A DNA stretch of 64,000 nt from Okamejei kenojei (GCA_035221665.1 CM069160.1:34348001-34412000), one strand, 5' to 3'; shown: positions 8,334 to 14,220, numbered from the stretch's first letter. A program made the numbers and translations. Notes: a model not told the origin generated them from the sequence alone.

Positions 8334-8665
8334 ACGAGGAGCATTACTTTTCCAACCCAGAAGCAGCAATGGCCTTTGCGCGTTAGATCCAGACTTGAGA
8401 AGCAGCTACATTCAAATATATTGACCCTTAAGAACGCCATCTCCCCTGTTGCGTCATCTACCATCAGACTGCTGAAGGAGCTTGGAATCCACGGTCAGGC
8501 TCTGCAGAAGACCATAAGATCACTCTCAGACGCGGCTGAAAGAAGCAGCTGTTGGATTTGGCTCAAGCGGAAAGACCCATGCTGGGCCCCAAATGCGTCA
8601 TGGTGAATCTTTGAGGCAGTTTGACACGGGACACACGCTGAGGGCTGATCATCCTGCAGCGGGCC

Positions 8666-8741
8666 GCCCTTGTGGAGGGTGTATAGTGATAAAAGGCCGA
8701 AACACCCAGTGATGCAAGGGTTCACTACTGATGATGTGTCC
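8666..8741 (+). ncRNA. Putative permuted/pseudoknotted hammerhead-like ribozyme with kink-turn (upstream repeat copy)
   Basis: GGGUG-UA (8677-8683) pairs with GAAA-CACCC (8699-8707); UAGUGA (8684-8689) pairs with UCACUA (8722-8727), followed by CUGAUGA (8728-8734); k-turn 8666-8676 / 8708-8721. Stem II is weak. Confidence 0.55.
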
Positions 8742-8790
8742 TGTGCCCAGCTGTCCTGAAGGTTACCCAGGCCAAGATATACGTATACGT

Positions 8791-8830
<40 letters not shown>

Positions 8831-9103
8831 TGATTGTTGAGCGTCCACCACTCTCAGCAATCAATTGAATGTCGTGAAATGCTCCCCACCTACTGGCACA
8901 AGGGACTTCTTAACATCTAGTCCTGTGTATTTGATTCTGAAAATCTGGACTTATCCAGTGACTGCTGTGAAAGGGACAGCTGACAACATGGGAAAGTCCA
9001 TGTGACAGCTTGGAGAGACAGCTGACAGGAGGGGAACAGACCCAATGGGGGCCGTCATGGGCTAGCTCCCCATGACAGCAGTCTCCAAAGCTGTTTCAGC
9101 TAG

Positions 9104-12100
9104 TTGGAGACACCGCTAAATGCTACAAAAAGTAAATTAAAAGAAATACCCCTAGAGCCTGCGAGAGCGGGGGCGCAAGATGGCTCACCGATTGATAACA
9201 CGGTTACAGACCCAGGAACGGAAACGACCACGGACAAGGAGAGCATGGCACATGAGACATCCACAACAGCTGCGCGACACAAAACTTCAGGTGTGCATCT
9301 GTGGTTGGGGAGAAAAGAACATCAATGATGGGCTTGAAGATCCACCAAGGGAGGAAAAAGTGCTTGAGAGAGCAGAGAGACATGGGCCTTGCATTGACCA
9401 GTACTTCTTACGAAGCAACCAGTCAAATCAGTCGAATGAAGCACAGCGACGGGACACAAACCAAAGTTCGCAGAGCATCAGCACCCATGTCACTGAAGAG
9501 GGTGATACAAGCACAGAAATGCCGGTGGAGGAGCCCACGCAACAACTACAAAGACCTCCATTGGAGGGAAAGATCAAAGGGCATAAACCTGGAGTGAAGT
9601 GGCCCAAAGCTGTTGAAAAGAAAGAGTGGGAGACGGTCAACAGTGACCTTATACATATCTTGGAGCAACAAGTGGGCACAGCAGTGGAAAAGCTTGAAAG
9701 GATGGGCAACATAATCTACAGCTATGGAGAAGAACGGTTTGGGGTGAGTAAAGGGAGAGGTGGAAAGAAGTTACCAACACCAATCAAGTCCAGGAGGCAG
9801 CAGGAGATCGAGAGGCTAATCAGAGAGAGGAGACAGTTGAAAAAGCAATGGAAAAAAGCAACTGACGCAGAAGAAGGTCTCATGCTACTCCAAGAGGACA
9901 TCAAGAGCCGATTGGCAACCTTGCGAAAAGCAGAGAACATGAGGAAACTTCGCAAGAATAAAGAACACACAAGAACACGGTTCTACAAAGACCCTTTCAA
10001 GTTCATCAAAGACCTCTTCGCAAAGGAAAAAAGTGGAACTTTGAAAACATCAAAACAAGAATTGGAGGAACACCTGGAAAAAGGCCCACCAAGCACGAAA
10101 AGGCATGAGAAGTTAGTCATTTCCCACATGACATCCACCTATTCAACCACCTGAATTCAACCTGGACACCAGCCCTCCGAAATGGAAAGAGGTAGAGAAA
10201 CACTGTCGGCGAGCAAGAGAGCAGCATCAGCTCGGGGCCAAACGGGAGTACCATACAAGCTCTACAAGAATGCACGGATGTGTTACGCTTTCTATGGAAG
10301 CTCATGAGGGTGGTTGTGGAAGAAGCAACAATACCTAAGGTGTGGCGAAGGGCCGGCGGCATACTAATACCTAAAGAAAAGGATGCATCAGGACATCAGC
10401 CAATTCCGGCCAATATGTCTCCTCAACGTCGAGGGAAAAATCTTTTTCAGCATTGTATCACAAAGGCTATCCACCTATCTGGTAAACAAACAAGTACATT
10501 GATACATCTGTACATAAAGCAGGAATTCAGGTTTTTCGGGCTGCTTGGAGCATTACAAGCATGATCTGGCACCAGATCCAAGCAGCTAAGAAGGACAAGA
10601 AAGACCTACATGTGATCTTCCTCGATCTGGCCAATGCATTTGGTTCAGTTCCACATGAACTCCTTTGGGAATCTTTTGCCTTTTTCCATGTACCAGAGCT
10701 CATCACCACACTGGTCAAGAAAACTATTTCCAAGGACCTGCAGCTGTGCTTCACAACAGCTGAATTCAGTACAACATGGCAGCGCTTGGAAGTAGGCATC
10801 ATGGCAGGCTGCACAGTCTCACCCTTGGCCTTTACAATGGCCATGGAAGTCATCATCAGGGCCTCAAAATGGGTGGTGGGCGGTGAACGAACAAGCTGGG
10901 CTCCGTCTGCCACCCATCAGGGCATACATGGACGATATGACAACAATAACCACTACTGCAGCATGCACCAAAAGGCGGCTATTGGAAAGCTGCAGGAGAG
11001 AACATCAAGTGGGCCCGAATGAAAATCAAACCAAGTAAGTCTCGAAGCATCTCCATAGTTAAGGGGGTGCTTAGAGACACAAGGTTCTGCATCGGTGACG
11101 ACCTAATACCAACAGTGTCTGAGCAGCCAGTAAAAAGCCTGGGCAGATGGTACAACGCAACTCTCAAGGACAAAGAGCAGGTGCAACAGCTAAGGCAAGA
11201 AATTGTCAACGGCCTGGAGATCATCAATCAGACCCTACTGCCTGGGAAACTGAAGCTCTGGTGCCTACAGTTTGGACTCCTTCCTCGGACAATGTGGCCA
11301 CTGACCGTTTATGAAGCTCCAATAACAACTGTGGAGAAGATGGAGCGAACCATAACTTCATACGCGAAGAAATGGCTCGGTGTCCCACGATGTCTAACTA
11401 ACATCGGCCTCTATGGCAAAGGGGTCCTGGAACTACCTCTCACTAGTCTAACAGAGGAATACAAGTGTTCCAAAGTAAGACTCCAGATGACACTGAGGGA
11501 ATCTAGAGACAAGACCATCAGTGCTGTTGCGCCGCCCCTAGTAACGGGCCGGAAGTGGACACCATCTGATGCAGTACAGCAAGCTTCATCAGCCCTGAGG
11601 CACAAAGACGTCGTGGGCAATGTGCAGCAGGGAAGAGGAGGCTTTGGCCTTACGACAAGTAAACCAACTTGGCGAAAGGCCACAACATCAGAGCGGAGGA
11701 CATTGGTGGTTGAGGAGGTGCGGCGACAGGAGGAGGCCGCAAGAAGTGCAAAGGCGGTCTCGCTTGCCAAACAGGGGCAATGGATGCAGTGGGAAGGTGT
11801 GGAGCGGAGGAAGATCAGCTGGAAAGAACTATGGGAAAATGGAATCAAGCAAGATCAGCTTCATCATCAGAGCGACATACGACGTCCTTCCATCACCAAA
11901 GAACCTCAATCAGTGGTACGGCGAGGATCCAACCTGTGCCCCTCTGCCCAACTCCAGCGACCTCAAACACATCATGGTAGGCTGCCAGACCAGCCTCACG
12001 CAAGGGAGATACACGTGGAGGCATAATCAGGTATTAAAAAGCCTGGCAACAGCCCTTGAGAACAGGCTGTGTGCGACCAACTCCTTGCCTCCGAGAGCAA

Positions 12101-12624
12101 GCAATCCCTCCCACTTAAGGGCGATAACTTTGTCCGAGAAGGACAGAAAACACCGAAACATCCTTCCACTAGATCAGAAGAAGGAAACCTATGCAGGGCC
12201 CGTGACTGGAGGATGCTGGCGGACATCGGCCGACAACTAATCTTTCCAACCTGAAATTGCTTTAACCAACCTCAGGCCAGATTTGGTGTTCTGGTCCCTT
12301 TCACAGAAGACTGCTTACATCATAGAGCTCACAGTTCCATGGGAGAACTCTGTTGTGGAGGCCTATGAGCGTAAGAAGCTGCGTTACACAGAGCTTGCAG
12401 CAGAGCAAGGCAGCGTGGCTGGGAACATCAACATTTATCCAGTTGAAGTGGGATGCAGAGGATTTGTTGCGTCATCTACCATCAGACTGCTGAAGGAGCT
12501 TGGAATCCACGGTCAGGCTCTGCAGAAGACCATAAGATCACTCTCAGACGCGGCTGAAAGAAGCAGCTGTTGGATTTGGCTCAAGCGGAAAGACCCATGC
12601 TGGGCCCCAAATGCGTCATGGTGA
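9104..12624 (+). pseudogene. HERO-like ORF: N-terminal zinc finger, reverse transcriptase, zinc knuckle, PD-(D/E)xK restriction-like endonuclease (frameshifts possibly assembly errors)
   Basis: CICG..GLKIHQGRKKC; FLDLANAFGSVPH; GIMAGCTVSPLAF; AYMDD; PVKSLGRWY; C..CPTPA..KHIMVGC..QGRYTWRHNQVL; LRPDLVFWS..IIELTVPWENSVVEAYERKKLRY. Confidence 0.9.
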
Positions 12625-12683
12625 ATCTTTGAGGCAGTTTGACACGGGACACACGCTGAGGGCTGATCATCCTGCAGCGGGCC

Positions 12684-12759
12684 GCCCTTGTGGAGGGTGT
12701 ATAGTGTTAAAAGGCGAAACAACCCAGTGATGCAAGGGTACACTACTGATGATGTGTCC
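12684..12759 (+). ncRNA. Putative permuted hammerhead-like ribozyme (3' UTR copy)
   Basis: Same motif with a compensatory U12707-A12740 pair. GUA at 12699-12701, CUGAUGA at 12746-12752. Two 1-nt indels near GAAAC. Confidence 0.5.
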
Positions 12760-14220
12760 TGTGCCCAGCTGTCCTGAAGGTTACCCAGGCCAAGATATAC
12801 GTATACGTACCGCCCCCCCCCCCTGATGTTGAGCGTCCACCCACTCTCAGCAATCAATGAATGTCGTGAAATGCTCCCCACCTACTGGCACAAGGGACTT
12901 CTTAACATCTAGTCCTGTGTATTTGATTCTCCAAGACTTCGCAAGACTCTATAAAATAATGCAGGACTGGATTGAACTGAGCAACGTTGGATGGAAGTCG
13001 GAGAAAGAAGTGGATTGGAAAACTTTACTTGGATACTAATAATTAATATCAATATATTACTAATATAAATAACTAATATACATTATAGACACTAGGTGGT
13101 ATTCCTACTAACATAATTTTTACTAATATTAATTACTTTTGCTAATAATTAATGATTTTCTATGTTGGAATGAATAGAGTTAAAATTAGGGATTGATTTC
13201 CTTTGGAGATTTTTCCTTTTTGTCAGCAATTTCTTTTACTTTCATTTTTAATATCTTTTTTTTCTTTCTCTTCTTTTTTTCTAGGATGGATTTTTTTTTC
13301 TTTTTTCTTTTTATTCTTTTACTTGTGTTCTTTCTGTTTAAAATTGATTGATTTTTACTTAAGTTCTAAACATGTACTTTGATATCTTTCCTTTTTTTTG
13401 TTCTTCCTGTTTATAATAATTAGATGTTTAAATAAGTCTTAAATAATGGTATTTCTATACTTTTATAATGGTTTATAAAAATTAGATGTTTAAATAAATC
13501 TTAAATAATTGTATTTCTATACCTTTAATGGTCATAAGTTAAATATGCCTTTACTAAATGTCTCTATTTTGTTCTTTCTAAAATTGATAGATTTTTAATT
13601 AAGTTCTAAATATGTATTTTGATATTCTTTCTTTATTATCTCATGTTTATAATAATGAGATGTTTAAACAAGTCTTAAATAATTGTATTTCTATACCTTT
13701 ACAATTGTTTATAATAATTAGATGTTTAAATAAGTTTTAAATAATTGTATTTCTATACCTTTATTTGTTAAATATGCCTTTACTAAATAAGTTTCTATTT
13801 TTATCCCTCTTTTTTCCCTTTCCCTTTTTTTTCTTCTTTAATACTACACCCCCTGTAAAATATTTTTATGGAATAACAATTCCAAAAACCTGGGAGCTGG
13901 TTAAGTTACCAACATCAACGACGGAAGTCGGTAGATGGTTAGCCATGCTAGTATGGCTAGCACTAACTACAGCAACTCTAGATGTAGTTTTTCCTTTCTT
14001 TTTGCACATTACTAACCTCTTAATCTATCCTTTGTACTTTTCTTATATAATCTATTATGGTTTTCTTCAATTTGAATGGAGTTATATACTGGATCAATGG
14101 AGATATATACCTGAGAGACATGCACGAGACTTAAAAATTCATCTATTCGATGTTCGGGTGTAAGGTCGGGTCTGATGTGTCTGAACATAGACTCTATTGC
14201 AGACCTCCATTAGTCATAAG

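Follow-up and report, generated by a model that had tools for sequence, protein, structure and literature searches.

Why is the 3' end of a retrotransposon present a second time, directly upstream of the element to which it belongs? The question is raised by a 64,000-nt stretch of Okamejei kenojei DNA (GCA_035221665.1 CM069160.1:34348001-34412000; the window, with positions counted on one strand from its first letter). Judging from its sequence, the element is a restriction-like endonuclease (RLE) retrotransposon without long terminal repeats (non-LTR), of the HERO clade, nested in the spacer of an L1. Each of the two repeats holds a hammerhead-type, predicted self-cleaving RNA with rewired strands that fit none of the types I-III. 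As the best explanation, we propose with moderate confidence that the element propagates head-to-tail or as partial tandems, in a Penelope-like manner, with a rewired hammerhead in its 3' untranslated region (UTR) and internal priming on multi-copy RNA. The non-canonical strand order of this hammerhead, missed in a preliminary description of the same DNA, is its most novel feature.

Repeat layout and clade of the element

Self-comparison of the window aligns positions 8447-8938 with 12465-12930 over 494 columns, with a start offset of 4018 nt. The stop codon of the main open reading frame (ORF) lies at 12622-12624, and the repeated portion of the ORF is therefore 160 nt long. This alignment bears out the preliminary description, which had reported an upstream duplication that takes in the entire 3' UTR and the last ~160 bp of the ORF; also as reported there, the cuts predicted after 8683 and 12701 lie 4018 nt, or one unit, apart. 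Outside an internal C tract, the repeats differ by two substitutions (8689A/12707T and 8722T/12740A) and five 1-nt indels. All seven differences are located 3' of the predicted cut, the 237 nt on its 5' side being free of them (P = 0.006), and 8447-8683 and 12465-12701 are identical (237/237). In both repeats, a palindromic TACGTA-rich stretch precedes the C tract (8779-8830 and 12797-12824), the length of which is very unequal between the two copies.

No poly(A) or simple-repeat tail was found at the 3' end of the element, and TCTCC is only a weak candidate for a target-site duplication (TSD) because 1.9% of random 8-nt window pairs share a word as long. The earlier statement that both a tail and a convincing TSD are lacking thus stands. 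The element begins 60 nt 3' of the L1 ORF1 stop, and the L1 continues past 12930, with ORF2-like coding sequence from about 14270; its identity was derived from translated motifs rather than from a library search.

One of the six ORF pieces that we scanned matches the Pfam model RVT_1 (E = 1.7e-11). Compared with the closest full-length relative, P0125, the ORF is broken into 15 listed segments (9072-12618) with a change of frame or an overlap between one and the next, and these frameshifts may be either assembly errors or signs of decay. P0125 carries YMDD, a CCHC knuckle and a restriction-like endonuclease of the PD-(D/E)xK type (PD..EL.VPWE..K). A search among longer proteins with the translation of 11004-11855 returned 241 relatives, and the named ones among the 120 listed belong to fish, lamprey, lancelet and sea urchins; the closest named protein among the matches listed comes from the skate Leucoraja erinacea (93% identity over 243 residues). 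When compared to the PDB, the family profile retrieves R2 proteins as its top three matches, followed by LINE-1 proteins. The reverse transcriptase (RT) of the lancelet protein P0103, our stand-in for HERO, is by eye near-identical to the published HERO-1_BF in a section of the PMC7650587 supplement, and far less like R2Dr and NeSL-1_TV. P0125 and P0103 share 46% identity over 1126 columns, and an unrooted tree of 19 proteins, with the named HERO sequences themselves outside it, places the fish group beside P0103 (support 88/94). The profile matches, the likeness to HERO-1_BF and the tree therefore uphold the earlier assignment to the R2 group and refine it to the HERO clade.

The element shares with HERO-1_BF, HEROTn and HERODr a single ORF with RT, CCHC knuckle and restriction-like endonuclease, and a distribution in fish, lancelet, sea urchin and bivalves. 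It differs from them in the ribozyme and in the tandem or pseudo-LTR organisation, both unreported for HERO in the literature searched. HEROFr, HEROTn and HERODr are described as not target-specific in passages of PMC3636483. The element had no match in a phage collection. Within the 5' leader, 8964-9111 can form several stable hairpins (9054-9076 and 9081-9111), and conservation of this region is visible in the translated extensions of relatives; the hairpins are possibly a translation element for uncapped RNA.

A hammerhead-like motif with rewired strands

The motif is located in the 3' UTR, 77 nt past the stop codon (Table 1). In copy 1, all seven helical segments are fully paired, and folding returns pair probabilities of 0.94-0.98 for P1, hairpin Y, P2 and stem III, except for the inner half of Y (0.56); stems I and II are pseudoknotted and were placed by hand. 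In the apical loop of stem III, A8683 is followed by one half of stem I (5' strand) and then, after a short linker, by one half of stem II (3' strand) and GAA. The matching halves lie in the three-way junction of P1, Y and P2, that of stem II (5' strand) on one side and that of stem I (3' strand), together with CUGAUGA, on the other. Along the RNA, the order is the stem II 5' strand, the cleavage strand, the GAAA strand and the CUGAUGA strand. A9 continues into P1 and Y returns into G10.1, so that two helices lie between A9 and G10.1.

Types I-III are three circular permutations of one arrangement, with A9 joined to position 10.1 directly or through one additional base, and the motif is none of the three. 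Its wiring would on paper be that of a hammerhead outside types I, II and III. The core (CUGANGA, GAAA and NUH) is complete in copy 1 and in the DNA of one distant relative, L001. A descriptor of the strand order, written after both sequences were known, matches copy 1 and L001, and has no match in 20 Mb of Markov sequence. Copy 2 as assembled carries two 1-nt indels in the core, pairs two of three positions in stem II and fails this descriptor. The 64-kb window holds no further copies. The lengths of stem I (6 bp) and stem II (4 bp) agree with those of metazoan hammerheads, according to passages of PMC4209133.

Both copies show the sequence pattern of a kink-turn (k-turn) between P2 and stem III, composed of a 3-nt bulge with a canonical helix and tandem G-A pairs, and this internal loop presumably fits the k-turn consensus. 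In the fish forms, the predicted k-turn could bend the stem III loop back onto the junction, and the motif may fold either as a monomer in this way or as a dimer of tandem copies. We consider self-cleavage of the motif probable.

To look for the motif in relatives, we relied on two sources. Of the 48 candidate stretches obtained by scanning the contigs of a prokaryotic genome collection, only L001 was confirmed. This locus (1-4622) is a decayed eukaryotic retrotransposon on a contig filed in the genome of a bacterial bivalve symbiont, and the contig is probably contaminating DNA of the bivalve host. L001 is 5'-truncated and about 30-40% identical in protein to the window element. Its motif follows directly after the stop, with 10/10 pairs in P1, 6/8 in Y, 3/4 in stem II, 6/6 in stem III and 4/4 in stem I, formed by changed helix sequences. 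The only changes in its core (CUGAGGA, GUU site) fall on N7 and H17, which are tolerant positions.

The second source was a set of relatives whose protein tails may read through the motif; here, we asked if any coding sequence of the tail can form the fold, in registers set by eye. Tails of at least 18 residues occur in five of the 230 proteins with the C-terminal motif (346 examined), P0079 was found separately, and three proteins were tested. In P0079, from hake, the compatible pairs are 10/10 for Y, 4/4 for stem II, 6/6 for stem III, 5/6 for stem I and 8/8 for both P2 and P1, with 22 of 23 fixed bases; back-translation nulls reached these values in 2, 8 and 0 of 200 cases for Y, P2 and P1, respectively. 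P0086, also from hake, is compatible with the core and k-turn (23/23), stem II (4/4), stems III and I (6/6 each) and P2 (8/8), and is above the null in the window's own register (1/300). In P0039, from zander, 25/25 pairs are compatible (0/200 shuffles), position 10.2 of stem II has undergone a forced swap from G-C to C-G, and the end of the protein coincides with the predicted UGA of the core, the core being tested to A6 only. P0028 and P0053 are compatible by eye and P0183 is uninformative; no more ribozyme read-throughs were found among shorter proteins. The GA/GA of the k-turn is compatible in P0079, P0086 and P0039, and is missing from L001. At the level of sequence, these data show that the fold is conserved in relatives and that it covaries, with stems I, II and III in the non-canonical register. 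The two ribozyme-like motifs one unit apart, as first described, hence hold as predicted motifs, with covariation in relatives added.

The loop of hairpin Y, CUGAUCA, is identical in the window (8645-8651) and in L001 (3109-3115), and compatible in P0079 and P0086. We considered kissing dimerisation through this palindromic loop and rejected it as a general feature, the loop being missing in the P0039/P0028 (zander/medaka) subfamily.

Several results speak against such a ribozyme. The fold of 8600-8790 reaches a z-score of only -1.79 (10/200 shuffles are as stable) and the core alone -2.7. Rfam returns no match in the whole window at the gathering threshold, and three weak, unrelated matches on 8550-9150 up to an E value of 10. 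The missing direct link between A9 and G10.1 could impair the core. The registers in the protein tails were picked after inspection, which makes the back-translation nulls optimistic; in the window's own register, P0079 is not above the null (44/300), nor are Y (7/10) and P1 (4/8) of P0086. Finally, L001 has no P2', no k-turn, no linker between III and I' and no upstream repeat, so its motif would be either deleted or able to fold only as a dimer.

Tandem organisation and the origin of the repeats

We surveyed 26 protein clusters for tandem organisation among the members listed, deriving placement on the same contig from equal contig sizes. In the cluster of P0002 (86% identical to the window query), 8/8 of the members listed are on 32152-nt contigs, an apparent array of at least six near-identical copies with 99-100% protein identity. 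P0097 and P0230 are both on a 7238-nt contig, where two ORFs would leave 599 nt of non-coding sequence, and P0092 and P0228 are two copies that both fall on a 13183-nt contig. Overall, 3/26 clusters have overlapping copies on one contig size above 7 kb; most contigs are too short for two copies, and the pairs on 5045-, 4970- and 4885-nt contigs are pieces of one copy. Moreover, the N-terminal extension of P0196 aligns over 8910-8972, across the internal junction at 8938/8939. On the opposite side, three members share a contig size of 4122 nt, which is too short for two copies, and equal size is therefore not proof of a shared contig. The upstream match of P0196 is modest (4/1280 blocks are as good, two of them the repeats themselves), and that of P0013 at the junction is not significant (79/1280 blocks). 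A search with the P0196 region for more junction-spanning proteins returned only P0013, and the representative-protein search gave three weak, multi-stretch, unnamed matches. Since relatives apparently occur several per contig, the tandems are probably not a one-off, and such an organisation is likely to be general in the clade. The tandem or partial-tandem arrangement first described at this locus thus apparently occurs in relatives as well.

Starting from the observed repeat, clade and covarying fold, we infer the cleavage, trimming and priming route as follows. The RNA would cut after A8683 and A12701, trimming read-through or multi-copy transcripts to unit length with a 388-nt structured leader. 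New insertions would be primed 226-229 nt 3' of the cut, on more-than-unit RNA, and this template would be either uncut, or nicked yet held together by the 26 bp of P1, P2 and stem III. Reverse transcription over 1.1 units followed by a stop would give rise to the present locus, and a source RNA with two different copies would make the repeats differ.

The differences between the repeats are informative in this respect. The substitutions at 8689 and 8722 are partners of one stem I pair, which reads A-U in the first copy and U-A in the second, and we estimate at about 1.5e-4 the chance that such a compensatory pair arose after insertion. They are the only two substitutions outside the poly(C), and as they make up a compensatory pair, two template copies are likely. 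The insertion ends at 12927-12930, 226-229 nt past the predicted cut, which excludes as primed template a linear unit that stops at 12701. The ends of the unit RNA re-pair at -29.6 kcal/mol, compared to -11.9 for shuffles (0/200); given this strong complementarity, circularisation may occur in the family. One difficulty is that the priming region would be lost through efficient cutting at 12701 if the pieces did not remain paired. In vitro, the RT of an Anolis Penelope element initiates internally on multi-copy RNA, mainly on unprocessed RNA, and its hammerhead is protein-assisted (PMC11167929).

The alternative that survives best uses two templates: either the RT switched from one RNA to another that had been processed separately, or an earlier, 5'-truncated copy was hit exactly at its 3' end by a second insertion (self-targeting), with tandems in both cases built at insertion rather than inherited from a multi-copy transcript. 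This would explain the compensatory difference directly, and it agrees with the location of the seven non-poly(C) differences past the predicted cut, none lying in the 237 nt before it (P = 0.006). R2-type RTs are said, by Bibillo and Eickbush in 2002, to copy across discontinuous templates, and TCT at 8936-8938 could be a 3-nt flank duplication. However, five of the seven differences are 1-nt indels and maybe sequencing noise, self-targeting sits poorly with the absence of target specificity reported for HEROFr, HEROTn and HERODr in passages of PMC3636483, and near-identical arrays (99-100% protein identity) are easily made from multi-copy templates. We therefore keep it as a tentative alternative. 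A much stronger reading appears doubtful: an active fourth hammerhead topology, multiply pseudoknotted, k-turn-folded and conserved from molluscs to fish, would cut and religate the unit ends into circular RNA, thereby regenerating tandems in an autonomous LINE (long interspersed nuclear element) in the way assumed for Penelope elements.

A different type of alternative concerns the RNA only and overlaps the others. The UTR fold may be non-catalytic (protein-binding or C/D-box-like), or its active form may be an ordinary type III hammerhead that uses the GAAA at 8876. The best Rfam matches over the core are indeed C/D small nucleolar RNA (snoRNA) models (E values of 3 and 4.4), but they lie far below the gathering thresholds, and CUGAGGA in L001, we assume, fits the hammerhead core and not box C, which counts against a C/D-box-like reading. 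A scan in the canonical order likewise returned one type III candidate per copy, which we rejected as G-U-rich: most of its pairs are G-U, and L001 has nothing that corresponds to the UTR downstream. With stems I, II and III covarying in the non-canonical register, either version is unlikely. Twister, pistol, hatchet and hepatitis delta virus (HDV)-like motifs did not fit by eye.

The preliminary description had derived the terminal redundancy from reverse transcription round one circular or unit-length RNA. In such a route, the cut RNA would be ligated into a 4018-nt circle around which the RT goes 1.1 times. The strong complementarity of the unit ends and the identity of 8447-8683 with 12465-12701 are in line with this idea, which is proposed for Penelope elements in passages of PMC4209133. 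However, one circle would give identical repeats, and two later mutations would have to make the compensatory pair (chance of about 1.5e-4); reads that end at the ribozyme site were not found for the Penelope element of Anolis (PMC11167929). Given also the insertion end past 12701, this route is very unlikely and the claim does not hold in its simple form. The earlier observations are thus confirmed, and of the interpretation, the R2-group affinity, the paired motifs, the tandems and the parallel to Penelope are retained, and the single-circle route is not. Least probable of all is an artefact that merged two genomic copies in an indel-rich assembly: the many frameshifts in a young element, repeats that look like two different copies and N gaps elsewhere in the window would fit, but the flanks are one colinear L1 (ORF1, spacer, ORF2), the weak TSD encloses the whole composite, apparent multi-copy contigs and continuity across the junction are seen in relatives, and the RNA motif holds even if the locus is misassembled.

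Known systems, coordinates and surroundings

Penelope-like elements also show partial tandems, carry a hammerhead within the repeat and have insertion ends that lie off the cut site (PMC11167929 and passages of PMC4209133), and the parallel drawn in the preliminary description is indeed close. In them, however, the RT is telomerase-like, the endonuclease is a GIY-YIG one and the hammerheads are type I or minimal, whereas the element described here has an R2-group RT, a PD-(D/E)xK endonuclease and the non-canonical strand order; with R2 and then LINE-1 proteins as its best PDB profile matches, it does not belong to Penelope. R2 shares the protein group, and its ribozyme frees the element RNA from a longer co-transcript and may leave upstream sequence (passages of PMC13580325 and PMC13708176). 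R2 has, however, a single 5' HDV-like ribozyme and inserts into 28S ribosomal DNA, whereas a hammerhead-type motif in the 3' UTR must lie in an upstream copy to set the 5' end. Non-LTR retrozymes also form tandem units, each with a hammerhead, that are cut to monomers and circles (passages of bioRxiv 10.64898/2026.07.22.740005), but they are short and non-coding with type I motifs, in contrast to the 4-kb coding element of the window. Hammerheads of types I-III, including pseudoknot-stabilised forms, share the core nucleotides, the NUH site, stems I-III and the G10.1-C11.1 pair. In passages of PMC3088659 and PMC6765202, they are three circular permutations in which pseudoknots serve solely as peripheral contacts; the motif described here instead has the order II5', cleavage, GAAA, CUGAUGA, two helices between A9 and G10.1 and, in fish, a predicted k-turn.

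No report of a HERO ribozyme, of HERO tandems or of a rewired hammerhead order was found in the literature searched, which did not extend to Repbase entries. A text search for the motif in papers gave one unrelated match, and none in the searched part of the PMC10294476 supplement. The clade is known; what appears to be new is the hammerhead-type motif, conserved and rewired, together with the Penelope-like layout. Hammerheads are taken to occur as three permutations, and descriptors for genome searches are built on those; a conserved fourth wiring missed by Rfam would, if true, represent an overlooked class of self-cleaving RNAs in animal genomes. In the literature consulted, LINE ribozymes are 5' HDV-like or twister. 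A hammerhead-type motif in the 3' UTR together with tandems would, if true, be a case of convergence on the Penelope life cycle by an R2-group element, and would explain how a promoterless, non-site-specific RLE element obtains a defined RNA. As RLE elements are under development as gene-insertion tools, a different priming or template rule would be of practical interest.

Table 1. Coordinates of the element, its repeats and its predicted RNA features in the window
Feature	Position	Strand	Description and evidence
Direct repeat copy 1 (pseudo-LTR-like)	8447-8938	+	Last 160 nt of ORF, stop 8604-8606, entire 3' UTR; alignment to 12465-12930
Direct repeat copy 2	12465-12930	+	ORF end, 3' UTR, element 3' end at 12927-12930; alignment
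Unique part of 5' leader	8939-9071	+	Joined directly to upstream 3' UTR copy; ATG at 9072 matches P0125 start; translated homology to N-terminal extensions of P0013, P0196, P0224
Single HERO-type ORF, frameshifted as assembled	9072-12624	+	N-terminal Cys/His motif, RT (YMDD 10925-10936), CCHC knuckle, restriction-like endonuclease
Hammerhead-like motif, copy 1	8625-8745	+	P1 8625-8635/8735-8745; hairpin Y 8636-8661; P2 8666-8674/8713-8721
Motif copy 1, stems	I 8684-8689/8722-8727; II 8662-8665/8695-8698; III 8677-8682/8702-8707	+	
Motif copy 1, core	GAAA 8699-8702; CUGAUGA 8728-8734	+	Predicted cut after A8683 (GUA)
Predicted k-turn between P2 and stem III	8675-8712	+	GA 8675-8676 facing 3-nt bulge and GA 8708-8712
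Hammerhead-like motif, copy 2	12643-12763	+	Predicted cut after A12701; compensatory U-A pair in stem I; two 1-nt indels near GAAA
Internal C tract	8792-8830	+	39 nt in copy 1; about 14 nt including one G in copy 2 (12810-12824)
Two small hairpins 3' of C tract	8831-8863; 8902-8924	+	Folding
Weak TSD candidate TCTCC	8440-8444; partner 12928-12932	+	Two extra C at left junction
Host L1, ORF1 end (stop 8384-8386) and start of inter-ORF spacer	8335-8446	+	Interrupted by element; translations, self-BLAST

The surroundings of the element are composed of nested repeats. Two L1s (1-1108 and 1085-17900) follow each other, the second adjoining ORF2 of the first from about 1085 and hosting the HERO element as well as a provirus. 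The inter-ORF spacer of this second L1 is long and AT-rich, with repeats inside it at 13323-13801. The provirus (2276-8334) is an endogenous retrovirus that interrupts ORF1 of this L1, with 649-nt LTRs (2276-2924 and 7686-8334) that are 97.8% identical and a 4-bp target duplication. Its internal region measures only about 4.8 kb and includes the ORF of an env C-terminus at 7015-7581 (Pfam TLV_coat, E = 9.7e-06). Further downstream, long degenerate GT, CA and CT tracts (29600-32100, 41700-43600 and 46100-47200) lie beside N gaps, consistent with a low-accuracy assembly.

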